In this document: piece after piece, positions 128-47,914 of the stretch
Layout: each line of letters starts with the position of its first letter
Numbering within the stretch: the first letter of the stretch is position 1
IMG/VR virus record: IMGVR_UViG_3300035390_000014
Span: 1 to 64,000 of that record
From: a virus
Lineage: Duplodnaviria > Caudoviricetes
Direction: 5' to 3' (one strand)
Length of the DNA stretch: 64,000 nucleotides
Made by a program: the position numbers and the translations under genes
The notes under the pieces: generated by a model
The model's input: only the letters and a program-made list of their open reading frames with translations
What the model was told of the DNA's origin: nothing
Database searches by the model: none

Positions 128-3100
128 TTATCTTTTCAAACCTAATGCTGTAAGGTTTGCATTTAATAATTTAACAGACTCAGGAACAATTGAATCGACA
201 TGATCATCTTCTTCAAGTCTTCCTAAATCTGATTCCAATTGTTCTCTAATAAACTTGTTCTTAAGATCAATACAATCAGATTTAGTTGTTAGAAATTCTC
301 TTAAATTAAATTTGGCATTATGTCCAATCAATGCTGCTGTTTCCATTTCCCCACATCTTTGACCACCTTTATTTTTACGACCAGCTAAAGGTTGCAAAGT
401 CTTTCTTGCATATGATCCAATACCTCTTGCCGCTAACCTTGTCTCAGATATATGAACCATTTTAAAGAAATATCCATATCCACATGTTACTGAATTAACT
501 GGATAACTATTTGACTGAGGATCAAACACATGGTATGTAAATTGTGTATTTGTATAAGCTAATGCTTGTTTGGTCTTTTCCATATTAACTGATTCAAATG
601 GAGGTTGAATTATTGACATATTGTCTATCCATTCATCATCAATAATCAAGGGCATTTGCTCTTCAAACTGCTGATGATACCACCCAATTTCAGTATTATC
701 AATTATTTTTATATAACCAAGAACATAATCTTTCACAAGTATCTGAATTTGATCTTGAGATAATTCATGATTTATTACTGATTGATCTTCACCATGAATT
801 ATATGTTTCATTTGCTTCTTCAAATCAAATAAAGACATACCCATATGATATTCAAACAACTGACCTACATTCATTCGACCAATGGTTCCCAAAGGATTGA
901 CAATAATATCAGCATGTCTCCCATCAGGTAACATTGGCATTTTTTCATGAGGAATAATAGTAGAGATTACACCTTTGTTACCATGTCTGTTCCCAACTTT
1001 ATCCCCAATCTGAATTGGTCTAAAGAATATACCAAACATTTCAACTCTAATTCCTAATACCTCTTCACCTTTCTTTTTAAATTTTCCTGTATTACTGAAT
1101 AGATCAAGATTATTTGCCTTGATAAAAGGTTTAACCTGATCCTTCTCCAGATTTTCTTCGATGATAACTTTAATTTTTAATTCTTCATCCTGCTGTGAGT
1201 TGATAACACTTTCAACCCAATCATTATACTGAGGTATATCCACACACCATTGATTAACATATAGATTAACTTCTGTTATAATAACATCCTGTTTTGATAG
1301 AAGTTTTCTTTCTTCTTTAAATATATCAAAGAAGTCCATTTGATTATTCGGAAATTCTTTTAAAATTGCGTATGGAGTACCTTTAGCAATTCTATCTCCG
1401 ATTTTTGGTAAAGGTTTATAATCAGCATTTTTATCCAAAGATAATAACACTTTATTCATAGGGATATCAAAAGACATATCCTCAAAATGAACTGATGTAA
1501 ACAATCCTTCCTTCTGGACGCGGTCTGAGATGATAATTCCATCCTCATAATTGTATCCATAATAAACCATTACACAAGTTAAAAGGTTTTTGCCAATGTT
1601 TATACTTCCATCTTTACAAAAATTACTTTCTGCTAAGATTTCACCAGCTTTAAATTTATCACCTTGCTTCACATATATATTAAATACATCAAGATTTGAT
1701 ATATAAATTTTTCTATATGTGATATTAAATATTTCAATTGTCTTATCATCATATAAAGCTATTATATAATTACTATCAAGATGTATAACCTTTCCTGATT
1801 TTTTAGCAATTTTTACAAACTGAGTATACTTTGTATATAAATTTTCACAACCTGATTTAATCATAGGTTTGTCAAAATTTTGTAACATAATTGCCTGTCT
1901 CATTTGAGACGACGCCATTTGCAACCTAGTCTGATCATCATGTTCAAGGAATGGAACCATAGATACAGGAATTGAAATTGGTTGCTTTTCAAGAAATTCA
2001 TCAGTAAATCTTAAATTTTCATCCAGTGGAACATTTGGAATAAGATTTTGAAGAACTCCGCAGTTATCTCTATCTGGTGTATCAACAGGACATATTCTAC
2101 CAAACATACTTGGCATAATATCTCTTAAATGCTCAGGAACATTCTGTCTATTAAACCCACCAGGTCCAACCAAGCTTGTTCTGCTTAACTTAGTTGCTTC
2201 ATCAATAGGATTAATAGCAAAATCAAACTGAACAATATCTGATACATTACATTCGGATAATATTTGAGTTGAATTAACATTGAATTTTGGTTGTCTTGCT
2301 GTTCTATTGGACATACACATATCAAATACTGCTTTAGATATCTTTGCTAATACTACATATTCAAGACATCTAATTCTTTTATTCTTCAGATCAGTATCAT
2401 CAAGATCACCACCATTCAATGTATAAACAATTTCATCAATAATATTATCGGTTTGAAAGAATATTGTTGAAATAGGATCAACTTTCAATATTAAGTCAAG
2501 GGAATATATAATATCTTCACCCTTAACTCTAGCATTAAATTTTGAATAATTTCTTCCTATTTCTTTTATAATATCATCTTGAGTTAACCCTCTTGATTCA
2601 TCATAAAAACATTTTAAATCATAAATCAACTTTTCATACAAAGTTGATTCCGGTGTCATAATTGGCGCATCTACCATATCAGATAAACCAAATTTTTCAT
2701 TCATAACCTCAATCCCATAATAACCAAACATAATTAGAAATAATGGAACTTTTCTTCCTAAGATGCTAATATAAACATAAGGAGATTCTTTCTGAGGAAA
2801 TATCATAAGAGTTGCAACATTAGTTCTAATCTTGATACTCTTTCCTCTTGTAACAACAGGGATATCAAACAACTGAAATAGAGGTATTTTCTTCCTTCCA
2901 TTTATAACTATGTAATTGTCATCTACTAATGCCGGAATTTGCATAGATAAATCTATCTTTGCAGTTCCTTTTTGAAACCTGATTATCAAATTCTTTTTTA
3001 AGGTTTTACTTATCTCTCCGTTAGAAAATCTGGGTTCTTTTAATCTAAATTCCATCAATTCAAACCCTAATTCTTCTGCTGGGATCAGTATCTTTCTTAC

Positions 3101-3190
3101 GTTCTCCAAAAGAGCTGCATACTCTTGCTGTCGAATATTAAAGATATGATTATTTCCGCCAACTTTATATATCGGATTTTCTATAGCCAA
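128..3190 (-). CDS. rpoB: Multisubunit RNA polymerase beta-like subunit (RNAP-1, probably non-virion), unsplit
   Basis: Motifs GRICPVDTPDRDNCG, HDDQTRLQMASSQMRQA, GYNYEDGIIIS, GDKVGNRHGNKGVIS, GGQRCGEME. TTG start with an AAGGAG RBS. Confidence 0.95.
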   Translation of the reverse strand: MAIENPIYKVGGNNHIFNIRQQEYAALLENVRKILIPAEELGFELMEFRLKEPRFSNGEISKTLKKNLIIRFQKGTAKIDLSMQIPALVDDNYIVINGRKKIPLFQLFDIPVVTRGKSIKIRTNVATLMIFPQKESPYVYISILGRKVPLFLIMFGYYGIEVMNEKFGLSDMVDAPIMTPESTLYEKLIYDLKCFYDESRGLTQDDIIKEIGRNYSKFNARVKGEDIIYSLDLILKVDPISTIFFQTDNIIDEIVYTLNGGDLDDTDLKNKRIRCLEYVVLAKISKAVFDMCMSNRTARQPKFNVNSTQILSECNVSDIVQFDFAINPIDEATKLSRTSLVGPGGFNRQNVPEHLRDIMPSMFGRICPVDTPDRDNCGVLQNLIPNVPLDENLRFTDEFLEKQPISIPVSMVPFLEHDDQTRLQMASSQMRQAIMLQNFDKPMIKSGCENLYTKYTQFVKIAKKSGKVIHLDSNYIIALYDDKTIEIFNITYRKIYISNLDVFNIYVKQGDKFKAGEILAESNFCKDGSINIGKNLLTCVMVYYGYNYEDGIIISDRVQKEGLFTSVHFEDMSFDIPMNKVLLSLDKNADYKPLPKIGDRIAKGTPYAILKEFPNNQMDFFDIFKEERKLLSKQDVIITEVNLYVNQWCVDIPQYNDWVESVINSQQDEELKIKVIIEENLEKDQVKPFIKANNLDLFSNTGKFKKKGEEVLGIRVEMFGIFFRPIQIGDKVGNRHGNKGVISTIIPHEKMPMLPDGRHADIIVNPLGTIGRMNVGQLFEYHMGMSLFDLKKQMKHIIHGEDQSVINHELSQDQIQILVKDYVLGYIKIIDNTEIGWYHQQFEEQMPLIIDDEWIDNMSIIQPPFESVNMEKTKQALAYTNTQFTYHVFDPQSNSYPVNSVTCGYGYFFKMVHISETRLAARGIGSYARKTLQPLAGRKNKGGQRCGEMETAALIGHNAKFNLREFLTTKSDCIDLKNKFIREQLESDLGRLEEDDHVDSIVPESVKLLNANLTALGLKR

Positions 3191-3205: not shown

Positions 3206-5920
3206 TTAAATTTCTTCGCCGCATAAGATTTTATCCATAACTCCATGATATAAACCAGAATCAAGGACACCACGTATGATATGTTTCTTTGGATTTGAAA
3301 ATGCTAAACCCATCAACCAGCTTTCATTTGAGGGCACAGTTTGAACAGATAGGTATTTAGGAACTACATTTTCTCGACCCTCAACCAATCTCCATTTTTT
3401 ATTATTATACCACATCAATTGAGATACAACACATTCAAAATGTACATGATGAATTGTTCTACTAAGGTTATAACAAGTGTACAACTTGGCAACCAATTCT
3501 TCTGGTTTAGTTCCTTTAGGAAATTTATGCAAAAGTTTAGACACTGTTGATAAATCAGCAACAATATCATGCTGTTTCATATCCTCACCTTCACTTTCCT
3601 TATCCAAAACAGCAACACCAGATGTATGAAATGTACGTAAAACCAACTGAGTATTACATTCTCCAAGACTCTGAGCTGCAATAACTCCAACAAACTCAGA
3701 ATCCAACATCTCATACAATTCCCCATAACATTTGGTGCATATTTTAGGGTTCTTACAATATATTGGACTTCTAACTTCAACAATCTTTCCTACATAACCA
3801 AGATAGTTATACTCGGTCATTTTAATCAGAGTACCATCTTCTTTAAACCATTTTCCAATTAACATCTTTGCTTTCTTTTCATCATCAACAAATACAGAAA
3901 GTAAATCAGTTGTTCCACAATCCTCAGTGTCTTTATCAATTTGAAGATTAGCACAAGTGAATATTAATTTTCTTGAAAGGTATCCAGATGTTCCTGTGTT
4001 CAAAGCAACATCAAGTAACCCCTTTCTAGAACCATTGGTAGAATCAAAGAACTCTCTTGGTGTTAACCCATTGATAAAACTATGTTTAATGGGTCTTTCA
4101 ATAATCTCACCTCTAAAGTTTGAAATAAAACCTCTGGTTAAAACTATCTGTCTTACCTGATCCCAACTCCCTCTAGCACCAGATTCTATCATGTATGCGT
4201 ATTTAAAATGATCTCTAAGATACTGAGTTGTTTCTTCCTTAGATACCATATCAAGTTGTTCTCTAATATCATCGCCTTCATACAATGAATCTCTTTTCTC
4301 AAGTGACCCTTCAATGAAACAATCATCTAGTGCAAGAGTTGCCCCAAATAATGTTGAATATTTAAATCCAAGAAATTTAATTTTATCGAGAACAGCAGCA
4401 GTAATTTCATTTGAATATCTATTATTAACATCAGTTAAATAGTAATTAATTTCTTTACCACCAACTTCTTCATCAATTATATGATAGTCAGATGGAAAAC
4501 AATCATTCAATAACTTTCTATCAGCTTTAATTGTTGTCCCTTTATATTCAACATCATACTGTAGATCAGGAAATATTTTATGAGTAACAGCATAGATACC
4601 CAATATAACATCCTGACTTGGTGTAGTTGACAAACTTCCATTAGAAGGATTGGTAAGATTTCTTATAACCAACAATCTATCCAACACTTCTTGCTTTGCT
4701 TCTTCACTGATTGGAACATAAACAGCCATCTGATCCCCATCAAAATCTGCATTAAATGGAGGGCATGACAATGGATGTAGTTTAATAACTTTTTCTAAAG
4801 TAACTTTGGTTTTATATCCCAAAAGACTTAATCTATGTAATGAAGGCTGTCTGTTTAAAATACATACCTCATTTACAGCAATCTCTTCACATATATTAAA
4901 AAGAATTGGGTTGCCAACTTCAATACAATTATCAATAAAATCAATTGAATCATTAATTTTCTTAAATCTTCCAATCTCAATAATTTTCTTTGCGATTTTC
5001 AATTTAAATAATTCAAGAAACATCAAATAAGGTAATGCACAATATTCCATTTCTAATGTAGGATCAGGAACAATTACTGCTCTACCAGAAAAATCAATTC
5101 GTTTACCTAAAATATTACCACGAATCAATCCTTCTTTTTTAGACATTTTCTCAAGAATATAAGCATACAACTCTTGAATATCTTTTTGAAGCTGTCTGTA
5201 ATAATTGTAATATAAATTTCTATCAACTCTTATATCACATGGAGTTTCTCTCATTGCTTCTTTTTTAGTAAGTATTTGAGTATAGTATCTATTAATTTTA
5301 TCCGAAGATACTTGTCCTTTCTTACTAACTTTCTTTGATGCAGGCCTTAAATCAGGAGGTAATACAATAACCTGACCGATTATTAATTGATCTATATTTT
5401 CTTTAACAACTTCCCAAGAAGTATTTCCTATACCCAAACCATAATCAGCTAAATCTTCAATTAATATTTTAATTGCTTCAGTACCGACTAAAGCATTTCT
5501 ATCAATATTTTCAGGGTCTTGTTTTTCAACCCTCCATGATTCTTCTTCATCATCATATACTAAAATACTGTTTTCATCTTTCATCAATTGATCCAATGCA
5601 GTCTTTACTTGACGACCACCAAGATCAATTACAAGATCATAAAACAATGGGTTCACAACCGGGATTGGTAGAATAATTTTAGCAAATCTTTTTCTTCTCT
5701 CATTGCTATTAACAACATCAACTCCACAATCTGCACAGGTTCCACCAGAACCTGATATACCCCAATAGGTTCCACATTGACAAGTATAATTCTTTTCTGG
5801 ACCAAATATCTGCTCAGAAAATAATCCTGTCGCATGAGGCAACTTCTTGTCGTAGATCTTAGTTGTTGTGATTTCTTTTAAGTCTTCACAAAACTCGTCA
5901 AAATTTAATAATGTAGGCAT
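3206..5920 (-). CDS. rpoC: Multisubunit RNA polymerase beta'-like subunit (RNAP-1), unsplit
   Basis: Catalytic NADFDGDQMAV, N-terminal Zn finger (CQCG...CADCG), LGKRIDFSGRAVI, RQPSLHR, bridge helix TGTSGYLSRKL, trigger loop QLVLRTFHTSG. Confidence 0.95.
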   Translation of the reverse strand: MPTLLNFDEFCEDLKEITTTKIYDKKLPHATGLFSEQIFGPEKNYTCQCGTYWGISGSGGTCADCGVDVVNSNERRKRFAKIILPIPVVNPLFYDLVIDLGGRQVKTALDQLMKDENSILVYDDEEESWRVEKQDPENIDRNALVGTEAIKILIEDLADYGLGIGNTSWEVVKENIDQLIIGQVIVLPPDLRPASKKVSKKGQVSSDKINRYYTQILTKKEAMRETPCDIRVDRNLYYNYYRQLQKDIQELYAYILEKMSKKEGLIRGNILGKRIDFSGRAVIVPDPTLEMEYCALPYLMFLELFKLKIAKKIIEIGRFKKINDSIDFIDNCIEVGNPILFNICEEIAVNEVCILNRQPSLHRLSLLGYKTKVTLEKVIKLHPLSCPPFNADFDGDQMAVYVPISEEAKQEVLDRLLVIRNLTNPSNGSLSTTPSQDVILGIYAVTHKIFPDLQYDVEYKGTTIKADRKLLNDCFPSDYHIIDEEVGGKEINYYLTDVNNRYSNEITAAVLDKIKFLGFKYSTLFGATLALDDCFIEGSLEKRDSLYEGDDIREQLDMVSKEETTQYLRDHFKYAYMIESGARGSWDQVRQIVLTRGFISNFRGEIIERPIKHSFINGLTPREFFDSTNGSRKGLLDVALNTGTSGYLSRKLIFTCANLQIDKDTEDCGTTDLLSVFVDDEKKAKMLIGKWFKEDGTLIKMTEYNYLGYVGKIVEVRSPIYCKNPKICTKCYGELYEMLDSEFVGVIAAQSLGECNTQLVLRTFHTSGVAVLDKESEGEDMKQHDIVADLSTVSKLLHKFPKGTKPEELVAKLYTCYNLSRTIHHVHFECVVSQLMWYNNKKWRLVEGRENVVPKYLSVQTVPSNESWLMGLAFSNPKKHIIRGVLDSGLYHGVMDKILCGEEI

Positions 5921-36869: not shown

Positions 36870-39800
36870 TTATCTCCATATCATTAAACTAATAAAATAA
36901 CTATTTAATAAATCTCTTACTGGTGATGCTTTGGGGTTTCTATATTTTGCACTACCTGTTTGTATAATATCTGATAATATTTCATTTTTTGTTTGAATGT
37001 CATCGCTTAGTGGTCCAAAAAATTCAGCAAGCAAATTTGGACAATTATATGATATAAAACTATAAGTATCAAGCTCACCCATTCTTTGTCCACCTTCACG
37101 TTTCTTACCAGCAGTAGGTTGAAATGTTTTGCTAGTCATTGGACCTGTTGATCGAGCATGAAGTTTATCCTTTGCAATATGTTCTAGTTTTAATATATAC
37201 ATGTACCCTATTGGCACTTTACTTTTTGTCTTAGTATTAAATTCTGGTAAAGACAAATTATAGCCTGATTTAAGGCCCAGTGATTTTAAACATGCTATTA
37301 TTTCTTTATAAGCAGGAGCTTTAAAAGGAGGAATTAAAATAGTCATACTACCTGAATCTTTAACTTGTTTCATAAATGTTTTAAATCGAACATCATTCAA
37401 TGCTTTAAATTTATTAATTAAATTTGTACTAAATTCTTTATTTTTTGTCATATCAAGATTTGGTAAAACTTTATGTAATAAAGCAATTACTTTAGGTTTA
37501 TCATTCAATTTAATTATTTGTCTACCTAATTCTTTTGAAATTAAACCGGTATATAATTCATATAGCTGACCAATATTCATACGACCAACTACACCGATAG
37601 GGTTTAAAATAATATCAACTTGATCTCCTGTTGGTGTTCTAGGCATAAGCTCATCCTTTTCGATAAGAGAAACAATACCCTTTGCTCCATGTCTATTGGT
37701 TAATTTATCACCAACTCCTACAGGCAATTCTTGCTCTAATTTAAACCTAATCATTACACCTGGAATAGTATCTCCTTTATGAGAAAACTTTTCATTATCT
37801 TTTAATCCATATCTTGTTCTTGTTCTTTTAGACAATTTATCTAATTCAGGAAATTTTCCTTCCTTTAGATTATTAAATACTTCTATATCAACTATTTTTC
37901 CACCAGGTGATTTTTTAATTAAATGGCCAGATACTATTTCAGTTCCTTCTTCATCTTCATCAAATCCAATTAATTGTTCAATTTCACCAATACTTTTTCT
38001 TAATAAAGGTTCGCCTTTTATAGTATCTTTTCCTAATTCATTTATAAAAACAACTCTATCTTCTTTGCCAATTTCAACTTCCTCTACTATACCATGTAAT
38101 GAATTAAGAACTCCCTCCCTTACAATTCTTTCAGATAATACAATACCATCCTCAAAATTAAATCCTTTGTATGGCATTAATGCAACACACATACTTCTAC
38201 CTAATGCAATCGCACCACCTGAAACACAAGACCCTTCTGCAATAATAGATTTTTCTTTTACAACTGATCCGGCCTTTACTGTAGGTTTAAAAACACTTAA
38301 TGTATCCTTTCCAGATCCAGATCTTAAATGAACAGGAGTTACTGGTATAACTTTATTGCCTCCAGTACTACATTGAATATATATAGCATCATCAGTTACT
38401 TTAGTTACTTTTCCATTACAAGGAGATTTTTTAATAAAGTCATCTGATAAAACACTTGTTAATATAGATTCATATCCTGATTGAATCATTGGTTGTTCTG
38501 GGTTTCTTAATGGAACCGCTTGTCTCATTTGACTACAACCAAACATTACTCTGTTCCCATCATCATTTTCAACAAATGGAATTTGAGCAGCTGTAGTTGA
38601 TAACATCCCAGAGTTCTCACCTTCTTTTTTCTCTTTGGATTGTATAATACCTCTTGCTGATGTTATAAAAGCATCAACAGTTAGCTGTTGTACAATACCA
38701 ACATTTTCACCTTCTGGTGTATCAAGTGTATCAATATTACCAAACATTGAGTCATGAACATTACGACCAGCATTTTGAATAGCTTGTTTATCAGGAATAC
38801 CACCAACGGCTTTACCTACTGGTGACACTCTTGTTTTAGTAGCCATTTCCTCAATAGGATTAGCATATTCCATATCAGCAACAATTTCTGAGTTAATAAA
38901 ATCGCTTAATACTTTGGTTTGAGAGATATCAAATATAGCTTTTTTATTACCAGATAGTACTTGTTCTTTATATTCAGTATGAGCTGCTAAAATTTGTTTT
39001 TGAGCAAGATGAACTATAACCTCAGAGTTTCTTATTCTCTGATTAGATACATCATTTCTTTTTTGTGTAAATCCTTCTACAACTTTAGTTGACATATATT
39101 TCATTATCAAATGTAATTCACTTGGTAATTGTTGATTAATTAATACTTGTTTTGCAACAGGATCAACTATATTTTCTAAATTGGATTGAATTAAGAATGT
39201 TGAATTAATACGGCCAGACATTTTAATAATTAAATTATTAAAATATTCATGAGATAAAAATTCTCCATTAATTTTTAATGAACTAATATCGACATGAATC
39301 AGTGATTGTACAATTTCTTCTTTTAGCTTCGTGTTAATATTTTCAAACAAAATCCATTGTTTATCATCAACTTTAACACTCCATTTGGTCTCTTTATCAG
39401 GTCTTTGGTCTGTTATCTTATACCTAATATCATATAATTGACATGACTCTTTAAAACCAAAACTGAAGCCTAAAAGGACTAATATTGGGACTTTATACGA
39501 TCCAATGTAAGCTTCTAAATATTCTTCCCTCTTAGTTCTTTTACTCCATATATGGAAAGTTGAATAAGAACTTTCAAATTTACTATCGTATAATTTAGGA
39601 AATGTTATTGGACATAAAACTAACTGATTAATAAGACATTTCTTTTTACCATTAATTTTAAAAGTTCCATCATTAGAAACATTAGGAACATCTAATAATA
39701 TTTCATGTTCTCTTTTAAATTTATCAACAACAACTACATGAATAGTACTAATATCAGATGGAGATAGATCGCCCGGTCTAATATGTTTCTTAACAACCTT

Positions 39801-40961
39801 AACACTTTTAAATGTTAATGGAACACCTTTTGTTTCCAAAACTTTAAATGAATTAACAATATCTTTCTTTAAATTTGTTTCAAAGTCAATTTTTCTTTTT
39901 TCAAAAATATGCTCAGGAGATTTATTTCCAACAGCTTTAGCTACATTGGATAATTGGATAACAATGTCTTCTGATGTGGATTCTGTTTTCTTAGGTTCCA
40001 ATAATTCATCTACATATTTTTTATCAATAACTTTCAATCCCATTGTTTTTTTAGAATCTGGAATACTAACTGCAGTTTGACGAGCTTTAATCATATCACC
40101 AGTTGATCTATATAATGCAGAAGCTATTGCTATATCTTTAGCATCATTATTTGTTAATTCATTGTTATGTGTTTTATCCAGTGATTTAGGATTTTTTTCA
40201 AAGAATTTTTGAATAGATTGTTTGAATTTAGATTTATTAGAAGGATCGATATCGCCTTCTATTTTTTTAATAATTATATTAGATGCTGTCTCTACTTTAC
40301 CATCAACTTCTTCTTCACCATCAATAACTTTGATATTTTTAAGATATAGATTAACTTTATTAAATTTTACATCTCTGTTTTTTATTAGTAGTCTATAACG
40401 GGAAGATGAATCACTAATAGTATTCATTATCAAATGATCATAATATAAATTATTTTTTTTAATTTCTAATATAAATGGGAACATTTTTCTATCAATATAT
40501 TTTGGAACATTTTTAGTTGCATCAACCGAGTATATAAATACTTTTTCATAACTATTTGGAAATGAACTAAAAATTTTATCAACTATATTTTTTAAAAGAA
40601 ACCCACCTCTTGCTCTATAGTTTTTCATTTTATATGATTCTTCCATTGATTGTAAAAACGGACTAAGATCATATATCAAATTCTGTCCTTGAGGTATTGC
40701 TTGAATCGAACTTGAGGCAACCAATCCATGAGCCTTATAAGTATTTTTAATTTCCGGAGTCATAGAACTAAATGGTATTTTAGTTTTTGGGATAATAACC
40801 TTTTTTGCATCAACTCGTAATAAATTCAATTTTGAATAATCATCTACAAATGTCGAATTTTCACTAAAGTAAACAATCAAAAAAGGATTCTTCTGAATTT
40901 GCGGAAATCTAATACCATTAACCACATGAGTAAATGGTTTCAGTGCTTTAAATTGAATCAT
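36870..40961 (-). CDS. rpoB: Multisubunit RNA polymerase beta-like subunit (RNAP-2, probably virion-packaged) with a ~345-aa N-terminal extension
   Basis: GNIDTLDTPEGENVG, ENDDGNRVMFGCSQMRQAVPL, GFNFEDGIVLS, GDKLTNRHGAKGIVS, GGQRMGELD. Confidence 0.95.
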   Translation of the reverse strand: MIQFKALKPFTHVVNGIRFPQIQKNPFLIVYFSENSTFVDDYSKLNLLRVDAKKVIIPKTKIPFSSMTPEIKNTYKAHGLVASSSIQAIPQGQNLIYDLSPFLQSMEESYKMKNYRARGGFLLKNIVDKIFSSFPNSYEKVFIYSVDATKNVPKYIDRKMFPFILEIKKNNLYYDHLIMNTISDSSSRYRLLIKNRDVKFNKVNLYLKNIKVIDGEEEVDGKVETASNIIIKKIEGDIDPSNKSKFKQSIQKFFEKNPKSLDKTHNNELTNNDAKDIAIASALYRSTGDMIKARQTAVSIPDSKKTMGLKVIDKKYVDELLEPKKTESTSEDIVIQLSNVAKAVGNKSPEHIFEKRKIDFETNLKKDIVNSFKVLETKGVPLTFKSVKVVKKHIRPGDLSPSDISTIHVVVVDKFKREHEILLDVPNVSNDGTFKINGKKKCLINQLVLCPITFPKLYDSKFESSYSTFHIWSKRTKREEYLEAYIGSYKVPILVLLGFSFGFKESCQLYDIRYKITDQRPDKETKWSVKVDDKQWILFENINTKLKEEIVQSLIHVDISSLKINGEFLSHEYFNNLIIKMSGRINSTFLIQSNLENIVDPVAKQVLINQQLPSELHLIMKYMSTKVVEGFTQKRNDVSNQRIRNSEVIVHLAQKQILAAHTEYKEQVLSGNKKAIFDISQTKVLSDFINSEIVADMEYANPIEEMATKTRVSPVGKAVGGIPDKQAIQNAGRNVHDSMFGNIDTLDTPEGENVGIVQQLTVDAFITSARGIIQSKEKKEGENSGMLSTTAAQIPFVENDDGNRVMFGCSQMRQAVPLRNPEQPMIQSGYESILTSVLSDDFIKKSPCNGKVTKVTDDAIYIQCSTGGNKVIPVTPVHLRSGSGKDTLSVFKPTVKAGSVVKEKSIIAEGSCVSGGAIALGRSMCVALMPYKGFNFEDGIVLSERIVREGVLNSLHGIVEEVEIGKEDRVVFINELGKDTIKGEPLLRKSIGEIEQLIGFDEDEEGTEIVSGHLIKKSPGGKIVDIEVFNNLKEGKFPELDKLSKRTRTRYGLKDNEKFSHKGDTIPGVMIRFKLEQELPVGVGDKLTNRHGAKGIVSLIEKDELMPRTPTGDQVDIILNPIGVVGRMNIGQLYELYTGLISKELGRQIIKLNDKPKVIALLHKVLPNLDMTKNKEFSTNLINKFKALNDVRFKTFMKQVKDSGSMTILIPPFKAPAYKEIIACLKSLGLKSGYNLSLPEFNTKTKSKVPIGYMYILKLEHIAKDKLHARSTGPMTSKTFQPTAGKKREGGQRMGELDTYSFISYNCPNLLAEFFGPLSDDIQTKNEILSDIIQTGSAKYRNPKASPVRDLLNSYFISLMIWR

Positions 40962-41304
40962 CTTTATCCTCGTAGTTGTCTAATTTTACTAAATCATTTT
41001 CTATTAATAATGTCCCTAAATCTGATCCATCTGATAGAGTGACATAAGCTTCATATCTACTATATACAGCTGATTTAACAGATGTTAAAGTAACTTCTTT
41101 ATTTAACAATAATGGTGTAACAAAATCTGTAGCTCTTTTACCATGTTCTCTTTCTGATTCTGTTTTTGGTCTCCATGTTTCAGGAGTATCAACATCTTTT
41201 AATCTGAATCTTTGTTTAGTTGTAATAGTAAATCCAAGATCGACAGTAGCATCAAAAGTATCACCATCAACAATATTAGTTACATATGCTTTATAATTAT
41301 ACAT
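40948..41304 (-). CDS. Staphylococcal-nuclease-like (SNase/thermonuclease) protein
   Basis: VTNIVDGDTFDATVDLGF...RFRLKDVDTPE...YSRYEA. Confidence 0.85.
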   Translation of the reverse strand: MYNYKAYVTNIVDGDTFDATVDLGFTITTKQRFRLKDVDTPETWRPKTESEREHGKRATDFVTPLLLNKEVTLTSVKSAVYSRYEAYVTLSDGSDLGTLLIENDLVKLDNYEDKDDSI

Positions 41305-41999
41305 TATTCACCTTCCTTCATTCTTCCTGGAGTTCCTAAGAATGTCCACATAAAAGATATTGTACTAAGAACTAATAATACTCCAGCTACTAATAAAAAA
41401 CCGCCAGTCATACCAAGAGCAACAACACTACCCCCAAACAATGCCCCTATTAAATATGTCATAAAACCTCCTATAAAAGATAATACTCCATATACAGTAA
41501 AATTTAAAGAAGAAGAATAAGGACCTTTTGTAGTAGATGTTATTGATTTTTCTATATCTTTTAGAACTTGCTCAGAAACTTGTTTAAAAGGTTGCTTTTT
41601 AATTTTAGAATTAATCATCATTACAATCAATATTGGTATTATAGCACCAGACATTGTCAAAACACTAGCCTGACCTAATGCTGCAAAAGCTCTTGAAATA
41701 TTAACGGATGCCTTCTTAACTGCTTTCAAATCAATATCCATGTCATTAGCTAATTTATATACTTTGCTATTTAATTCTTTTTCAGGTTTAACAAAGTTTT
41801 TATGTCTGCCAACAAAAGTTTCCATTTGTTTATCATTTTTAATAGAGCTAATTTTTTTTAACATATCTTTTAATTTATTAGCAGGCATGGTAGATTCATT
41901 TAATATATTATCAACACTATAATTATTATATATTTCTAACAACTCACTATATATATCATTATTAAATAAAGCGTTTAATTCATAATTGTAATTATTCAT
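41304..41999 (-). CDS. Putative virion-internal protein: LxE propeptide, helical domain, multiple TM helices
   Basis: DNILNE|STM; three hydrophobic segments. Confidence 0.5.
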   Translation of the reverse strand: MNNYNYELNALFNNDIYSELLEIYNNYSVDNILNESTMPANKLKDMLKKISSIKNDKQMETFVGRHKNFVKPEKELNSKVYKLANDMDIDLKAVKKASVNISRAFAALGQASVLTMSGAIIPILIVMMINSKIKKQPFKQVSEQVLKDIEKSITSTTKGPYSSSLNFTVYGVLSFIGGFMTYLIGALFGGSVVALGMTGGFLLVAGVLLVLSTISFMWTFLGTPGRMKEGE

Positions 42000-42020
42000 A
42001 CTACCACCCTCTTATATTAT

Positions 42021-42740
42021 TTAATTATTTTTATATCCTTTAGCACCAAGTCTTGAGGAACTTCTACGTTTATCATCAACTAGGCTTCCAGTCATAACCT
42101 TTTCAATGATACTCTGTTCACCTCTTTCTTCAGTTATAAGACCTGTTTTAATAGCATCATTGATATTTTCAAATGCTAATCCATTTACAAAACCCTCTGA
42201 GAAAATAACCTTTTTTAGATTAACTAATATTGGGTCCCAAGTTGATCCTAATCTAGCAGATATCTGAATGTTCTTTTTATCCCTTAATACTTGGGAACAC
42301 ATAATTTCCAAATGAACTGAATCCATATCTGATAGTTTTCCATAAACTGCGAATAATTTTCTATATAGATGCCCTGCATCTTTTAATATTTCTCTACCAC
42401 CAATCAATCTTTCAACATATGAAATTTGTACGGCTGATTCTCCAGCCTCAGTTGATACTTCTAATATTGGCGAATTGGCTTCAAATTTTAATTTAACATA
42501 ATCTTTTTCAATATTTTCTCTTTCATATACAAATAATTCAAGAGCATAATCTAATGTTATATCAAATATTTTGTCGCCATATTCAGCTTTAGCTAATAAT
42601 GATTTAACCCAAATTCTCTTACCTTCTTCTTTTTCTAAGAAATTTGTTTTATCATAATTACTCATATCAATAGATAATATCATCGCTTGAGTGGTGATTA
42701 ATTGTTGTTCATGTTGTTTTAAAAATTGAGTTATTTTCAT
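42021..42740 (-). CDS. C-terminal fragment of the RNAP-2 beta' subunit
   Basis: AVQISYVERLIGG (second trigger helix equivalent), HLEIMCSQVL and LKKVIFSEGFVNGLAFEN align with HFECVVSQLM and SWLMGLAFSN at the C-terminus of the RNAP-1 beta'. Confidence 0.8.
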   Translation of the reverse strand: MKITQFLKQHEQQLITTQAMILSIDMSNYDKTNFLEKEEGKRIWVKSLLAKAEYGDKIFDITLDYALELFVYERENIEKDYVKLKFEANSPILEVSTEAGESAVQISYVERLIGGREILKDAGHLYRKLFAVYGKLSDMDSVHLEIMCSQVLRDKKNIQISARLGSTWDPILVNLKKVIFSEGFVNGLAFENINDAIKTGLITEERGEQSIIEKVMTGSLVDDKRRSSSRLGAKGYKNN

Positions 42741-42743
42741 AAT

Positions 42744-43130
42744 TTACGCCCGTTGCATTTGTTTTTGTAAACGTTCTTTCTTTTGATCCAATATCTTCTT
42801 TTTATTCGCATCTTGTTTCATTTGATTTGCTTTAGCATTCATAGCATTCTTTTTAGATGGGTCTTGCTCCATTGAGGCAGCAGCTTTAGCTTTTTTATGT
42901 TTACGATATAAATAATATGCTCCCAAGGCTGCAACTTGAGCTCCAGGAACTACTGCCATTGCGCCACCAGCTGCTGTGGCAATACCATGGCCGGCTGCTG
43001 CTCCAGCAACTTGAACTGCGGCATATTTACCAGTTCTGCCCAACTTAGTCTCTTTATCATCTTGACCTGTTTTATCCATCAAGCCTTCACGTAAACAATA
43101 GAAGGTATATTCCTCAGATAAAGTTATCAT
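42744..43130 (-). CDS. Putative virion-internal protein (LxE, Gly/Ala helix, Lys-rich tail)
   Basis: YCLRE|GLM; AALGAYYLYRKHKKAK. Confidence 0.5.
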   Translation of the reverse strand: MITLSEEYTFYCLREGLMDKTGQDDKETKLGRTGKYAAVQVAGAAAGHGIATAAGGAMAVVPGAQVAALGAYYLYRKHKKAKAAASMEQDPSKKNAMNAKANQMKQDANKKKILDQKKERLQKQMQRA

Positions 43131-43135
43131 AATAT

Positions 43136-43408
43136 TTAACCCTTACAAGTTTTAGAGCATTTAGTTCCATACCCACTTTTATAACTTTTGAATTTTAATA
43201 TTTTACCGCATTTACATATTGGTCTATCACTTAATCCTTTAGATACATTATATGATCTTTCAGTTATAGTAGCAGACTTTGGTAAATAATCTGTATACTC
43301 ATATAATGCATTATAGATTCTTGGGTTATCTTTTTTTAATTTTTTAGTACTTGGTGCTTTTTCTCCATATGTATCTTGAATATAAATTGAAACTATTTGT
43401 TTATTCAT
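43136..43408 (-). CDS. Small Zn-module protein resembling the N-terminal module of phage homing endonucleases
   Basis: RPICKCGKILKFKSYKSGYGTKCSKTC; no nuclease domain. Confidence 0.5.
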   Translation of the reverse strand: MNKQIVSIYIQDTYGEKAPSTKKLKKDNPRIYNALYEYTDYLPKSATITERSYNVSKGLSDRPICKCGKILKFKSYKSGYGTKCSKTCKG

Positions 43409-43422
43409 AATAATTACCCCTT

Positions 43423-45765
43423 TTATTTTTCTAATCCAGACATTGGATCATTGTTAATTATATCTGCTAACATATCTCTTTTTATCAATGAAACAGCTCC
43501 ACCTGTATGGAATGTTTTCATGATAAGCTGTGTGCCTCTCTCTCCAATAATTTGAGCAGCAAGAATTCCAACATACGGGGTGTTATGTCTTTCTAATAAT
43601 TTACCATAACAAGTATGACAAATCTTTTGAGATTTACAGTATATAGGAGTTCTCAAACTTACAATATCTCCTAGTTTAAATTTGCCTTCATCAAATAACA
43701 TTAGCTTACCTTGTTTGATTACATAACGTCCTTTAAATCTTCCCATTAACATTTTATCTAACTTTACATCTAATGTTCTAGTTGTTCCGCAGTCTTTAGT
43801 AACCCTATCTAACTCAACTGTATTTAAAAGATATGCTAATTTACGAGACATATAGCCAGTATCAGCCGTATTGATAACCCTATCAATAATACCTTTACGT
43901 GCCCCTTGAGATGCGTCAAAGAATTCTCTATTAGACAAACCGTCTGCGAATGACCCTGATATAGGGTCTAAAACATTACCATCAGGATCAGCTATAACAC
44001 CCTTTGCAACCAATATCTGCATTGGTTGACCCCATCCTTTTGTTGATCCAGAATTAGCAAGATCACCAAACCCTGTATTATCTAAATGTTTTTCTAATAT
44101 TGTTTGAGCTTCTTCTAATAAAGTTTGAGCTTCTTCTGGGTTAGCGGTTTTTAATTTTTCTTTAATTTTTATAACAGAATCAGGTAATGCAAAATCATCT
44201 AAATTCATTGAAGGAGCCATAATTGTAGCCCATTTAAAACCAACATCTTTTAATTTATCAACAACTTGCTTTATTACTTCTCCACCGTGCTTTTCATAAG
44301 TTAATTCAATTCTAGCACCAATAGTTTTTTTAGTTGCTTGAGCTTCCATGAAACCAAGATCAGTAGGGAAACAACTATTAACAATTGCTTTACCCATTGT
44401 TGTGTTTACACCTCTATATTTAACAGCTATATATGGTTCTTTAGCATTAACTAAATCTTCATTTGATACTGCTAATGGAGAACCTGTGGCAGTTCTATCT
44501 TTTGTAATTGTGTATAAACCAGCCCAAATCTCTTTTGAAAGACCAAAAATAAATTCATTTGATGATGTACCACTTGTTAATTTCATCATTCTAGTTCTTG
44601 CTTCTTCCTGAGCTTCATTTGTTAGTGGATGATATATAGCCATTGTATCACCATCAAAATCGGCATTATGAACACCAACCTGAGTGGTTGACATAAGCAT
44701 TGTATCGCCTCTATGTAATACAGGGTTGTATGCTAAATAACTTTGAGTATGAAGAACTGGATCTCTTTTTACAACAACAATTCTACCCTTCATTGAAATT
44801 TCAGTTTGTTCAAAGAATAATTCATATAATTCTTCTGGCACTTTATCGCCTTCTTTAATACCTTTCATTACTCTTTTAACTGCTTCAACTGATAAATCCA
44901 TCCCGGTAAATTCTTTTACCCCATTTGATAAAACTTCTTTGTCAACTCTACCTGAATATAATAAACGGTGCATAATAAAAGGTTCAAATAAACCAATAGC
45001 TAATCTTAAAGGAACCCCACATTCATTTATAAGTAAATTAGGATCTGGTGTAATAACAGCACGCCCGGAAAAGTCAATACGCTTTCCAAGCATCTGTTCT
45101 CTAATAATTCCATGTTTTTTACCAATTTTAGATCTAATATAATTATCATGATCCATTACTGATTGGTGCATAGCATAATTTAATAAATCATATAATGGAC
45201 CTGAACCAGATGATCTTAGTTGTGATGCTCTTCTCATTAAAGCAAGATAAACATCATTTAAAGCATCTATCATCCAATTACCATCTTCCCCTTGTACAGC
45301 TGGTCTTAACTCAGGTGGTATAACAGGGATTTTATCAATAAAAATTGTATCATTTTTTGTTTCTCTTATAACAAATTTTATTAGTTTATCTCTTAATTCA
45401 GTCTCACCTCTCCATTTAATAGAGGGAAATAATTTAATAAACTCTTTTATACCAGTAACACCACCAGTTTCAACTATTTCTAACCTACCATCTTTATCTA
45501 ATATAAAAGATTCCTCAGTTGATATAAATTTTTCAATTTTTCTATCCAACTGAAGTAATACTCTATATACTGATGGATGAATAGCAAACCCATGTAATTC
45601 AATATATGAAAATAAAATTCTTCTATCTTTCGAACCATCTGGTCCAAATATTTCTTCGCTATATAAACCTTCCTCATGAAAATGACCAGTCTTAGTGGTA
45701 GTAATCATAGAGGTCACAGGTTTCAAATTCTGACTGAAATTAGATGGATTGAGTAATTTTAACAT
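43423..45765 (-). CDS. rpoC: RNAP-2 beta'-like subunit, N-terminal and catalytic part
   Basis: NADFDGDTMAIY, LGKRIDFSGRAVI, KRDPVLH, TADTGYMSRKL, QLIMKTFHTGG, then a stop 20 codons later. Confidence 0.93.
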   Translation of the reverse strand: MLKLLNPSNFSQNLKPVTSMITTTKTGHFHEEGLYSEEIFGPDGSKDRRILFSYIELHGFAIHPSVYRVLLQLDRKIEKFISTEESFILDKDGRLEIVETGGVTGIKEFIKLFPSIKWRGETELRDKLIKFVIRETKNDTIFIDKIPVIPPELRPAVQGEDGNWMIDALNDVYLALMRRASQLRSSGSGPLYDLLNYAMHQSVMDHDNYIRSKIGKKHGIIREQMLGKRIDFSGRAVITPDPNLLINECGVPLRLAIGLFEPFIMHRLLYSGRVDKEVLSNGVKEFTGMDLSVEAVKRVMKGIKEGDKVPEELYELFFEQTEISMKGRIVVVKRDPVLHTQSYLAYNPVLHRGDTMLMSTTQVGVHNADFDGDTMAIYHPLTNEAQEEARTRMMKLTSGTSSNEFIFGLSKEIWAGLYTITKDRTATGSPLAVSNEDLVNAKEPYIAVKYRGVNTTMGKAIVNSCFPTDLGFMEAQATKKTIGARIELTYEKHGGEVIKQVVDKLKDVGFKWATIMAPSMNLDDFALPDSVIKIKEKLKTANPEEAQTLLEEAQTILEKHLDNTGFGDLANSGSTKGWGQPMQILVAKGVIADPDGNVLDPISGSFADGLSNREFFDASQGARKGIIDRVINTADTGYMSRKLAYLLNTVELDRVTKDCGTTRTLDVKLDKMLMGRFKGRYVIKQGKLMLFDEGKFKLGDIVSLRTPIYCKSQKICHTCYGKLLERHNTPYVGILAAQIIGERGTQLIMKTFHTGGAVSLIKRDMLADIINNDPMSGLEK

Positions 45766-46355
45766 TATTTCTTAGCCTTAGCTTTTTCTATTTTTTGTTT
45801 TTGTTTAATCATTTTTTGTTTTAAAATTTCTTTCTGTTCAGGATCTTTTTCAGAACTATATTTTTTCTTTAAACCTTTATATGTAAAATATAATGCCAAA
45901 AGAACAGCAGATGCACCAACGGCATATCCTTCTTTTACCAATGTCGGCGGTTTCATTTTCTTATTAAATGTCTTAGTTGATTTAGTTTTTAACGCCGCCT
46001 GACTTACAGTATTAGGAATTGCTTTATTATATTTATTTAATAATTTTGTAAGTTTAATAACTACTCCTGGTAAATGTCCATCAGGTTGTTTTTCAGCCAT
46101 TCTCTTTGCAAGTTTTAATGAAAATTCAATCATCTTAGCATCTTTATAACCATATCTATTACAAATTGGAAACAAAGTATGTTCAGATCCCTGACCCAAT
46201 TTTAAATAACAACCAGGATTTTTTTCAGCATCAGATTTTACAAATTCTGGAGATAATCTTTTTAAATCATCATGATAAGTTATTGGTGATATTAGTTTAT
46301 AGGCTGTTCTTAATAACTCAGATAAATTTTGAAATTCTTCATTTAAATTTTCCAT
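45765..46355 (-). CDS. Putative virion-internal protein, two modules (second: hydrophobic helix plus Lys-rich tail)
   Basis: NLNEE; TLVKE|GYAVGASAVLLALYFTYKGLKKK. Confidence 0.5.
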   Translation of the reverse strand: MENLNEEFQNLSELLRTAYKLISPITYHDDLKRLSPEFVKSDAEKNPGCYLKLGQGSEHTLFPICNRYGYKDAKMIEFSLKLAKRMAEKQPDGHLPGVVIKLTKLLNKYNKAIPNTVSQAALKTKSTKTFNKKMKPPTLVKEGYAVGASAVLLALYFTYKGLKKKYSSEKDPEQKEILKQKMIKQKQKIEKAKAKK

Positions 46356-46382
46356 ATATAAAACTCCCTTTTAGTCTTTATT

Positions 46383-46392
46383 ATTTGTTCTA
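46383..46392 (-). promoter_or_regulatory. Motif class B (sense TAGAACAAAT)
   Basis: 28 nt upstream of the ATG at 46355, just downstream of a terminator. Confidence 0.55.
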
Positions 46393-46414
46393 AAAAAAGA
46401 GTAATAAAACCGAC

Positions 46415-46454
46415 AAAAAAAAGAGCATCCCAAATTAATGGAATGCTCTTTTTT
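46415..46454 (-). terminator. Intrinsic terminator
   Basis: AAAAAAGAGCATTCC-ATTAATTT-GGGATGCTCTTTTTTTT on the minus strand; stem with a G-U wobble plus a U8 tail. Confidence 0.85.
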
Positions 46455-46465
46455 ATTTACTTTAT

Positions 46466-47914
46466 TTAAAAGTCTAAATCGACCAATTTTGATAATTCTA
46501 TAATTTTATCATCCAATTGTCCAGAAAAGTATAATGTATAAAACTTAACCATATTACTTTCTATTTTGGAAAGAGGGATGCCTCCGTAAGGTTTACCATC
46601 AAAGATATTAAAGAAATTAACTCTTGAGGTTCGTCCAACAAAATAACTCATAATTTTATAAGGTAATATTTTGGTTTGAAAACCAAAGAAGTTATTAGTC
46701 TTGTCCTGAACATTAATAAAACCTGCTTCATTATTAACATTCTTTATTTTATAAGTAGTGGCAACTGCTGGAGAACTAGTAGGATAAAAATTCAACATTG
46801 AAAACATATCTGAATATTCATTGTGAAAAACTTGTTGTAATAGTTTTTGCAAATAAACAGACATGACTATTGAATGTTCCGGAGATAAGGTTTTGAAGTG
46901 AAAGTAAGGAATATTAGTGATTTTTGATAATAGTGGAAATACCAAACAATCGCTTAAAGGTGATATATATTCTATATCCTGAACTCTTTGTTGAAACTCA
47001 GCTAAATTTTTATCAGCAGCATCATTATTATCAACAGCCATTGGAGTTGTTTTATCAATTTCTTTATAGATATATTCATAGGCAATACCCTTCAATCTTC
47101 CAAGAGTATCATTATAACTATATGTTTTAAGATTATCAACATTCAATCCATGAATATCTTCAGTTGATACTGAATCATCATAAACTATTGTTTTCTTATA
47201 TACTGATCTAAGGAACCATTTAACTGATTCCTCAACAACTCCAACAAAGTAAGTAATTGGATTTTTATCCTCTTCACAGAGAATAAGAATTGAGTTCATA
47301 ATGAAATTGAATATTTCAACTGTATGAACATCAATTGATTTACATTGGATCATCTTGATATATTCCCACATATATCTATCAGTGAGGTTATATCTAAATG
47401 TTTTAGTTTTAACAATGTTGAATATTTTAAAAACAACATCTGTATTCATTATTTCTTCAACAAGCATATTATAAATTTTCTTATGGACTTGATTTGATAT
47501 CACAATGTCTTGTCTAATTGAGATCAATGAATATAGTTTCAAATAACCAGAAACCACCAAAATCTTTCTTATTTCAGCAGGTTCAAATAAAATTGTCCCT
47601 TTCTTAACTTTAGATCTATCAACAAATTTAGAATAATCCATATTTTGAATATCAAAATATTTATCAATGTATTCTTTTAAAATGTTGATGTTATTAGTTA
47701 TGTAATTTAAATCATCTTTGTCTTTATACTCTTCAATAAATTTAAAAAACCATTCTGAAAATTCATCACCACTTGCTTCATTTACACTTTTAATAAAATC
47801 AGTAACAATATGAAATTTGTTAGTGACTGAGGAAGATTTCAAATTAAGTTCAATAGTTTTTTCACCCAAAGACATTGACCACTTCTTCTGTTCTAATTTT
47901 TCAAACTCAAGCAT
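46466..47914 (-). CDS. Large helical hypothetical protein; candidate phage transcription/promoter-specificity factor
   Basis: 482-aa monocistronic unit with its own class A motif and terminator, next to the RNAP-2 genes. The functional call is contextual inference. Confidence 0.35.
   Translation of the reverse strand: MLEFEKLEQKKWSMSLGEKTIELNLKSSSVTNKFHIVTDFIKSVNEASGDEFSEWFFKFIEEYKDKDDLNYITNNINILKEYIDKYFDIQNMDYSKFVDRSKVKKGTILFEPAEIRKILVVSGYLKLYSLISIRQDIVISNQVHKKIYNMLVEEIMNTDVVFKIFNIVKTKTFRYNLTDRYMWEYIKMIQCKSIDVHTVEIFNFIMNSILILCEEDKNPITYFVGVVEESVKWFLRSVYKKTIVYDDSVSTEDIHGLNVDNLKTYSYNDTLGRLKGIAYEYIYKEIDKTTPMAVDNNDAADKNLAEFQQRVQDIEYISPLSDCLVFPLLSKITNIPYFHFKTLSPEHSIVMSVYLQKLLQQVFHNEYSDMFSMLNFYPTSSPAVATTYKIKNVNNEAGFINVQDKTNNFFGFQTKILPYKIMSYFVGRTSRVNFFNIFDGKPYGGIPLSKIESNMVKFYTLYFSGQLDDKIIELSKLVDLDF

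Follow-up and report, generated by a model that had tools for sequence, protein, structure and literature searches.

We analyzed the first 64 kb (the window) of the 202,719-bp IMG/VR virus record IMGVR_UViG_3300035390_000014, DNA of an uncultured jumbo phage in a sediment metagenome, and found that one of its RNA polymerase (RNAP) genes is cut inside the trigger loop. Two multisubunit RNAP sets were identified in the window with Pfam. In the second set (RNAP-2), the gene of the β′ subunit is divided into two cistrons; the first (β′N, protein P0001) carries the first trigger helix (TH1), the second (β′C, protein P0002) carries the second trigger helix (TH2). Very probably, the two chains are made separately and assemble, and the division had its origin in an endonuclease gene. 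In all RNAPs of the cellular type, the trigger loop is the mobile element closing over every nucleotide that comes in; in bacteria possessing the insertion domain SI3, the inserted domain must swing along with it.

P0001 matched Rpb1 domains 1, 2, 3, and 5 of Pfam (Rpb1_2, E = 4.8e-26; Rpb1_5, E = 3.8e-21) and is 25-28% identical to unsplit phage and bacterial β′ proteins. The polypeptide is uninterrupted from its N-terminus through the double-psi β-barrel (DPBB) domain and the bridge helix into TH1, which contains an M-(R/K)-x-F-H motif, and a profile alignment spans residues 758-944 of bacterial β′. The original prediction had P0001 ending past TH1, which was confirmed, but with a tail of about 20 codons; the stop lies 24 codons past the GG of F752-H753-T754-G755-G756. 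This tail is colinear with unsplit relatives and, judged from that alignment, appears to be the N-side stump of the linker of a trigger-loop insertion. Among cultured phages in GenBank, P0001 alone finds matches, which are distant (about 25%) unsplit β′ genes; a megablast search with positions 41500-46500 against the GenBank phage collection gave no match.

Sequence comparison clearly identifies P0002 as the β′ C-terminus that P0001 lacks. With residues 787-1006 of the unsplit 1007-amino acid (aa) β′ protein P0071, it shares 46% identity; numerous further proteins of 1000-1013 aa are also matched from end to end, and P0002 is similar to the C-terminus of RNAP-1 β′ of the window (BLASTP, E = 9e-6). 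The motif AVQISYVERLIGG was found at residues 103-115, followed by HLEIMCSQVL and GLAFEN; TH2 and the C-terminus are thus located where they had been predicted, and the proposed alignment to the β′ C-terminus was obtained with unsplit relatives, by profile, and by structure. Pfam, PHROG, and NCBIfam contained no match to P0002, and none was obtained by tblastn against the GenBank phage collection. In RNAP-1 β′, the trigger elements are close together as predicted, with about 20 residues (the earlier estimate was about 15) separating FHTSG from IVADLSTVSKLLH. Because so few residues lie between the trigger-helix motifs, RNAP-1 β′ is without a trigger-loop insertion; therefore, the two polymerases of the phage differ in the presence of an SI3-like domain.

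The cut was located on a structure model of the unsplit relative P0071 (residues 600-1007, 32-row alignment), which had a mean predicted local distance difference test score (pLDDT) of 79.9. In this model, the bridge helix (helices 13-33 and 39-48) is followed by TH1 (133-154), two short helices (166-173 and 181-187), a β domain (189-275), TH2 (283-294), and the C-terminal helices. The model superposes on AR9 gp154 (Z 20.4), phiKZ gp74 (Z 18.8), and, as the proposed structural alignment to bacterial β′ required, residues 483-1339 of Escherichia coli β′ (Z about 16). AR9 gp154 is the best structural match of the unsplit C-terminal half, with a root mean square deviation (rmsd) of 2.6 over 199 aligned residues. 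The break maps to the loop joining the two short helices. According to the model, the cut lies at the N-side hinge of the SI3-like insertion, before its sandwich-barrel hybrid motif (SBHM); β′N retains TH1 and a 24-residue stump, and β′C comprises the SBHM, TH2, and the remainder. An SI3-like insertion had been named as the break point, and this part of the claim stands, but the cut precedes the SBHM and does not lie within it. The placement of TH1 and TH2 in the models also agrees with the claim that the trigger helices are on different polypeptides and that the hairpin would have to form in trans.

In VIA-align, the β domain of P0002 aligned to residues 407-506 of AR9 gp154 (Z 7.1 and 6.1) and, within SI3, to the first SBHM both of E. 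coli (946-1023; Z 6.5) and of cyanobacteria and plastids (351-430; Z 6.5-6.8). These are moderate scores, and rmsd values overall were 2.7-4.2 over 70-150 residues. All top 20 structural matches of P0002 residues 10-100 (Z 5.4-7.1) were SBHMs of SI3 or the AR9 trigger-loop insertion domain (TLID); the Thermus β′ SBHM and biotinyl domains followed at lower ranks. As Z reached only 5.4-7.1, the SBHM assignment leans on consistency and position more than on score.

At least 1998 homologs of P0001 were found at E ≤1e-30, and the 125 best matches were surveyed for the state of the gene. Whereas 89 are unsplit (998-1020 aa), 36 are split, 32 of them with a length of 770-781 aa and four with 1143-1165 aa. 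All split forms are broken at roughly one position, but the wording of the tail differs by lineage (LEK, ELE, VKK, MEK, and others). C halves of the split form also exist as many standalone proteins of 220-244 aa, and every diverged C half begins with ATG at the colinear residue. Furthermore, the related loci L004, L005, L008, and L009 are split, and gene maps show the same arrangement for the surroundings of P0246 and P0322; in all, dozens of contigs have the split. The loci of P0246, P0322, and P0311 are known from gene maps.

Split forms do not constitute a single lineage. A FastTree phylogeny of all 125 sequences required 11 changes each for the split and unsplit labels. An IQ-TREE phylogeny was calculated with 72 sequences and only the residues up to TH1, leaving out the columns of the trait itself; here, 10 changes were required, all forced by branches with SH-aLRT support ≥95. 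A single clade of split forms was rejected by the approximately unbiased (AU) test (difference in log-likelihood 1828, P = 6.5e-10). P0246 (split) and P0248 (unsplit) form a sister pair with opposite states and branch lengths of 0.077 and 0.056, the locus L010 is the unsplit sister of the split L009, and the unsplit P0227 (1020 aa, 68% identity) is nested in the otherwise all-split clade of the window. Unsplit relatives are present at every distance. When P0227 and the window were compared in search of a recombination signal, the SBHM was the only part with a drop in identity; this domain is variable in general, and the drop is not diagnostic.

The window comes from one metagenomic contig, and the break might be an artefact of assembly or gene calling; alternatively, recoding by readthrough, frameshift, or bypass might still yield one chain. 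The window DNA was matched in three sediment sequencing runs, all of them DNA, and the letters at the junction were identical in contigs of the two other runs; the same arrangement recurs in many contigs. Since two other runs and dozens of contigs contain the split, the break is not an assembly error. As to recoding, the halves lie in different frames and are separated by 683 nucleotides (nt) containing two open reading frames (ORFs). The gap in L008 (50 nt, a stop followed by a hairpin) superficially recalls T4 gene 60. A bypass of this kind was rejected for L008: the hairpin scored no better than shuffled sequences (z −1.1), and no pair of take-off and landing codons restores the frame. One lone apparent joint among the contigs had sides of 22 nt and came from unrelated contigs; it was disregarded. 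We consider an artefact or recoding scarcely tenable.

Jumbo phage genes often carry group I introns that contain homing endonucleases and may be as short as about 200 nt (PMC12880540), and the insert might be a self-splicing group I or II intron with ORFs in its loops, from which one β′ mRNA and polypeptide would be restored. Presence and absence at one site among close relatives would also fit a mobile intron. However, Rfam gave no family at E ≤1 in positions 40500-47000 of the window and none at E ≤0.1 in L004, L005, L008, and L009, that is, no match in five loci. The insert is filled by two ORFs; in the order β′N, P0004, P0003, β′C, the gaps amount to 14, 5, and 3 nt. Moreover, the endonuclease ORF of L009 overlaps both halves, the spacer of L008 is just 47 nt, and the C halves start with ATG at the colinear residue with no exon residues lost. 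An intron of these groups is therefore highly improbable; one of an undescribed class would remain conceivable. On the minus (coding) strand, no terminator-like site was found between the β′ halves.

Protein trans-splicing by a split intein would likewise restore one chain. Inteins occur in this gene in the relatives P0219, P0236, and P0320, L004 contains a broken intein after DFDGD, and the starts of P0069 and P0092 resemble its C-intein-like ORF. At the trigger-loop break, however, no residues are in excess. Both the tail ...NDPMSGLEK and the head MKITQFLKQ have their homologous counterparts within the uninterrupted sequence of unsplit proteins, leaving no room for intein halves, and the total length agrees within 1-2 residues. 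No Cys/Ser/Thr nucleophile pattern was found flanking the junction. A split intein can hardly be credited. Splicing and recoding had been named as findings that would overturn the original prediction, and Rfam, the sizes of the gaps, and the L008 spacer gave no sign of either; the check for an assembly error and the survey of relatives for the split likewise came out in its favor.

The existence of a second, unsplit RNAP in the genome and the apparent further damage of the L004 N half near DFDGD would be compatible with a dead RNAP-2 β′, the pieces of which are decaying pseudogenes while RNAP-1 or the host enzyme takes over. Against this stands the preservation of the gene: from 93% to <40% identity, both halves are intact ORFs, full-length in dozens of lineages, with the same invariant residues as the unsplit forms, including catalytic and trigger-helix residues. 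The persistence of intact ORFs and invariant residues speaks against pseudogenes, and the conservation of the halves argues that both are under purifying selection. A lineage in which only a scar is left in the gap (the L008 group, five clusters) also retains both halves, and the halves score as a complex. It is thus very unlikely that the gene is dead.

The complex of P0001 (residues 25-780) and P0002 was predicted with alignments that we had built ourselves (A3 and A2). The interaction prediction score from aligned errors (ipSAE) was 0.74 (0.74-0.75 in three runs) and 0.00 for the best control; of 80 solved complexes, 58 attained this mark, as did two of 110 mismatched pairs. At least 87% of the contacts were common to the runs, and the pLDDT of the partners was ≥75. 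In the predicted complex, TH1 (731-748) contacts residues 95-113 and 133-152 of the C half, and the β′N tail (758-780) contacts its residues 1-14 and 59-65.

The gap between the halves contains different genes in different lineages. The two ORFs of the window (90 and 128 aa) had been noted earlier as unrelated; their presence was confirmed, but we read them as the residue of mobile endonuclease cassettes, by which the split would have been made and removed again repeatedly in the phage family. The Atlas structure of P0004 resembles, over residues 5-90, N-terminal parts of larger viral DUF7487, DUF559/Vsr, and T5orf172 proteins (template modeling score 0.67-0.75); by this fold similarity, P0004 is probably the leftover N-terminal stump of a decayed homing endonuclease of the DUF7487 type. 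A word search with P0004 against longer proteins gave no match, and its similarity to the HNH endonuclease P0337 of L004 was insignificant (BLASTP, E = 0.23). L004 shares the gap content of the window, with homologs of P0004 (62% identity) and P0003 (37%). The gap of L005 contains one ORF of 100 aa, P0336 (L005:5684-5986), built like P0003; both have a Gly/Ala-rich hydrophobic segment and a long Lys-rich tail, without detectable sequence similarity.

The gap of L009 is occupied by a 339-aa ORF, P0335 (L009:5828-6847), with an N-terminal C2H2-type finger, basic repeats, and a PD-(D/E)xK-like C-terminus (D...E-x-D pattern). In the Atlas, clusters of viral DUF559/REase, NUMOD3, and zf-C2H2 proteins come closest to it, at 0.92-0.94; the match is below the 170-feature comfort mark of the Atlas and is a lead, not proof. 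P0003, P0004, P0335, and P0336 had no significant match in Pfam, PHROG, or NCBIfam. The gene maps show ORFs of 338 and 347 aa in the corresponding gap beside P0246 and P0322. The ATG of P0335 overlaps the new stop of β′N; as AAGGAG and the β′C ATG lie in the last codons at the 3′ end of P0335, this cassette supplies the translation signals for β′C. L008 has no ORF in the gap: 47 nt extend from the stop to an ATG preceded by AGGA, and the 50 nt from the last β′N sense codon to the β′C ATG (L008:5841-5890) open with TAA and a 10-bp hairpin. The contents of the gap match the stages through which a homing endonuclease passes in its life cycle (invasion, decay, loss), here at a site tolerant to breaks. 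As in genes split by homing endonucleases, unsplit alleles occur in close relatives, and the distribution of the split is patchy and non-clonal.

These observations can be combined into the following scenario. The ancestor would have been an undivided protein, about 1000-1010 aa long, whose trigger loop had a single SBHM inserted at its tip. A mobile endonuclease cassette may have entered the linker between TH1 and the SBHM, so that translation would now stop after ...NDPxxxLEK and the remainder would have its own new ribosome-binding site and ATG. The four tightly packed cistrons of the window would probably be co-transcribed and translationally coupled, and the two β′ proteins would assemble non-covalently. 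TH1 with its catalytic Met/Lys/His would be anchored in β′N and TH2 in β′C, the 24-residue tail of β′N would dock on the SBHM, and the trigger hairpin would form in trans. In the window, the endonuclease would have decayed to the 90-aa remnant, accompanied by a small passenger gene; in other lineages, it would be intact (339 aa) or gone, leaving the 47-nt scar. A more far-reaching version assumes that free-standing endonuclease cassettes, with neither intron nor intein, bring their own stop, ribosome-binding site, and ATG, that they spread the split allele horizontally among jumbo phages, that the enzyme is fully active in two chains, and that the split outlives the endonuclease; for this version as a whole, we regard the chances as evenly balanced.

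Several points speak against two separately made, assembling chains of endonuclease-driven origin. For separate translation and the absence of splicing, the argument is one from sequence. In the window, β′C is preceded by a weak Shine-Dalgarno sequence (GGGCG), and expression of β′C would hence hinge on coupling to the small ORF upstream. The many changes of state could also reflect recombination among phages and not repeated insertion de novo. The putative endonuclease nature of P0335 and P0004 is deduced from motif, language-model, and fold similarity, with no significant family match. The complex prediction is a model score on halves of a family with solved structures and indicates likeness, not binding; as RNAP structures are already solved, it may in part be fold memory.

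Features of the two RNAP sets in the window (positions of the whole stretch; res, residues; AF2, AlphaFold2)
Feature	Positions	Strand	Remarks
RNAP-1 β	128..3190		1020 aa
RNAP-1 β′	3206..5920	−	904 aa, unsplit
RNAP-2 β	36870..40961	−	1363 aa; Pfam Rpb2 domains 3, 6, 7; in a common operon with RNAP-2 β′
SNase-like ORF	40948-41304	−	118 aa; Pfam SNase, E 5.6e-9; between β′C and β
231-aa ORF	41304-41999	−	Between β′C and β
RNAP-2 β′C (P0002)	42021..42740	−	239 aa; ATG 3 nt past the stop of the preceding ORF
C-terminal module, P0002 res 115-220	42081..42398	−	HLEIMCSQVL, GLAFEN, IIEKVMTG; weak profile alignment to bacterial β′ 1284-1358
TH2, P0002 res 98-114	42399..42449	−	...AVQISYVERLIGG; helix directly after the SBHM in the model
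SBHM-type insertion domain, P0002 res 7-95	42456..42722	−	Predicted in AF2 model, pLDDT 80-90
Insert ORF 2 (P0003)	42744..43130	−	128 aa; Gly/Ala-rich hydrophobic segment and Lys-rich tail
Insert ORF 1 (P0004)	43136..43408	−	90 aa; Zn-finger-like CxC...CxxxC module
RNAP-2 β′N (P0001)	43423..45765	−	780 aa; clamp/DPBB, NADFDGD, bridge helix, TH1, 24-residue tail
Tail after TH1, res 757-780	43426..43497	−	Short helix KRDMLADIINND, then PMSGLEK and stop
TH1, about res 732-756	43498..43572	−	...GERGTQLIMKTFHTGG; aligned to 'GEPGTQLTMRTFHTGG' of bacterial β′ (PDB profile search)
Bridge helix region, about res 612-648	43822..43932	−	Profile alignment to bacterial β′ bridge helix
Mg-binding motif NADFDGD, res 367-373	44647..44667	−	D369-D373 invariant columns in alignment A3

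The window has a GC content of about 30%, and nearly all its genes are located on the minus strand. RNAP-2 β directly follows β′C or β′ in L005, L008, L009, and L010, and these four loci lack the SNase-like ORF and the 231-aa ORF found between β′C and β in the window. L011 also carries the SNase ORF, and L004 has an HNH-like ORF and two further genes at this site. Apparently, the interval between β′C and β is a second variable insertion point of the operon.

An intact DUF7487 protein of 357 aa is encoded in the same genome outside the window (G000:C1:175280-176353; L013:1120-2193), directly downstream of another gene. It has a PD-(D/E)xK-like C-terminus (...IAIEYDGSYWHD) and is, by its sequence, a candidate for an active homing endonuclease of the class of the gap stump. 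In L004, a 79%-identical relative, β′N is interrupted again directly past the catalytic motif (L004:1-2807). The start of this contig encodes FDGD, a Cys, and an intein-like N fragment of 134 aa, followed by a 363-aa HNH/DUF7487 homing endonuclease ORF (409-1500; PHROG 3339, E = 1.6e-15). In a different frame lies a C-intein-like ORF, the end of which reads ...GIFVQDTN* rather than ...HN; the extein restarts at residue 396, and about 22 conserved residues (TMAIYHPL...) are absent. This interruption is either a decayed "fractured gene" or an artefact of the contig end. P0069 (683 aa) and P0092 (673 aa) begin with sequences resembling the C-intein-like ORF (...NNIELIPISD..., ...YDFTVEDF) and continue into an unsplit C-terminus, which suggests, at the level of sequence, that certain lineages have a split-intein ("fractured") organization of the gene, with DFDGD, where L004 is interrupted, as the probable site. 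The long split forms P0219, P0236, P0285, and P0320 (1143-1165 aa) exceed the usual β′N by about 380 aa and end with the same split tail; Pfam matches to LAGLIDADG_3, Intein_splicing, or Hom_end were obtained for P0219, P0236, and P0320. As three of these long split forms also carry intein-type matches, the β′ gene hosts several kinds of selfish elements at once.

No description of a natural β′ split at the trigger-loop position was found in the literature, and splits go unmentioned in a paper on Caudovirales from metagenomes that encode RNAPs. A single β-rich domain inserted in the trigger loop is known from the non-virion RNAP of AR9, in which the TLID comprises residues 400-508 of the β′C protein gp154 (PMC9209446; PDB 7S00/7S01). 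Residues 1-96 of P0002 correspond to 407-506 of gp154, with an identity of about 9-21%; in AR9, however, both trigger helices and the TLID are on one polypeptide. SI3 of E. coli, cyanobacteria, and plastids is likewise inserted between TH1 and TH2 and shares its fold class with the phage domain (P0002 residues 10-98: Z 6.2-6.8, rmsd 2.7-3.1, 70-79 residues aligned). The phage protein has one SBHM compared with two in E. coli and many in cyanobacterial SI3. Furthermore, SI3 is covalently joined to both trigger helices, whereas the N-side linker is cut in the phage.

Large subunits in pieces that assemble without splicing are likewise found in the γ/β′ of cyanobacteria and plastids, in phiKZ and AR9, and in the archaeal A′/A″. 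The archaeal split lies between bridge helix and trigger loop, whereas the phage has bridge helix and TH1 on one chain and TH2 on the other. In phiKZ, AR9, and cyanobacteria, β′ is split once the DPBB domain is complete (PMC7598289) and upstream of the bridge helix, where P0001 is continuous; the AR9 split was described near the β′-α interface, with the TLID unsplit (PMC9209446). These β′/A splits keep both trigger helices on one chain and are fixed, whereas the phage split separates the helices and is polymorphic among close relatives. In apicoplasts, a β″-type gene is annotated as two coding sequences, rpoC2A and rpoC2B, for which a frameshift was proposed (PMC3627918). By the coordinates of single-nucleotide polymorphisms, we estimate rpoC2A at about 540 aa or less, and its break may lie after TH1, within the SI3 region; the break is attributed to a frameshift there and to an inserted gene in the phage.

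Engineered splits of E. coli β′ were reportedly tolerated in vitro in split-site reconstitution experiments of the 1990s. The recurring cut in the phages suggests that a polymerase can work with a trigger loop built from two chains. A natural enzyme with its trigger helices on two proteins also suggests that covalent continuity is dispensable at the hairpin tip and in the N-side SI3 linker; the split enzyme would be active. Closely related split and unsplit RNAPs exist that can be compared biochemically. If cassettes do spread active split alleles, these phages would provide a natural series of matched split and unsplit RNAPs, with which the contribution of covalent continuity between TH1 and the insertion domain to catalysis and pausing could be tested.

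Genes in pieces are known from phages, such as the split gp43 DNA polymerases of T4-like phages and "fractured genes" with split inteins, and nrdA of Aeromonas phage Aeh1 is said to be split by mobE. The β′ locus resembles genes of the nrdA/mobE type in having a putative endonuclease gene, or its probable remnant, between halves of an essential enzyme that would be translated separately, and in having unsplit alleles in relatives; the halves would likewise reassemble. It differs in its target, the catalytic trigger loop of a multisubunit RNAP. Within a single family, moreover, the split has arisen anew or spread 10 times or more, and it persists where the endonuclease has been lost. Gene fission by free-standing endonucleases is thus known in principle; new, as far as we found, are the cut inside the trigger loop and the recurrent endonuclease-linked polymorphism. 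Selfish endonuclease genes would then be able to colonise the coding region of an essential gene via a permissive surface hinge, with no detectable splicing element, and in this β′ family, such colonisation would have happened, or spread, many times.

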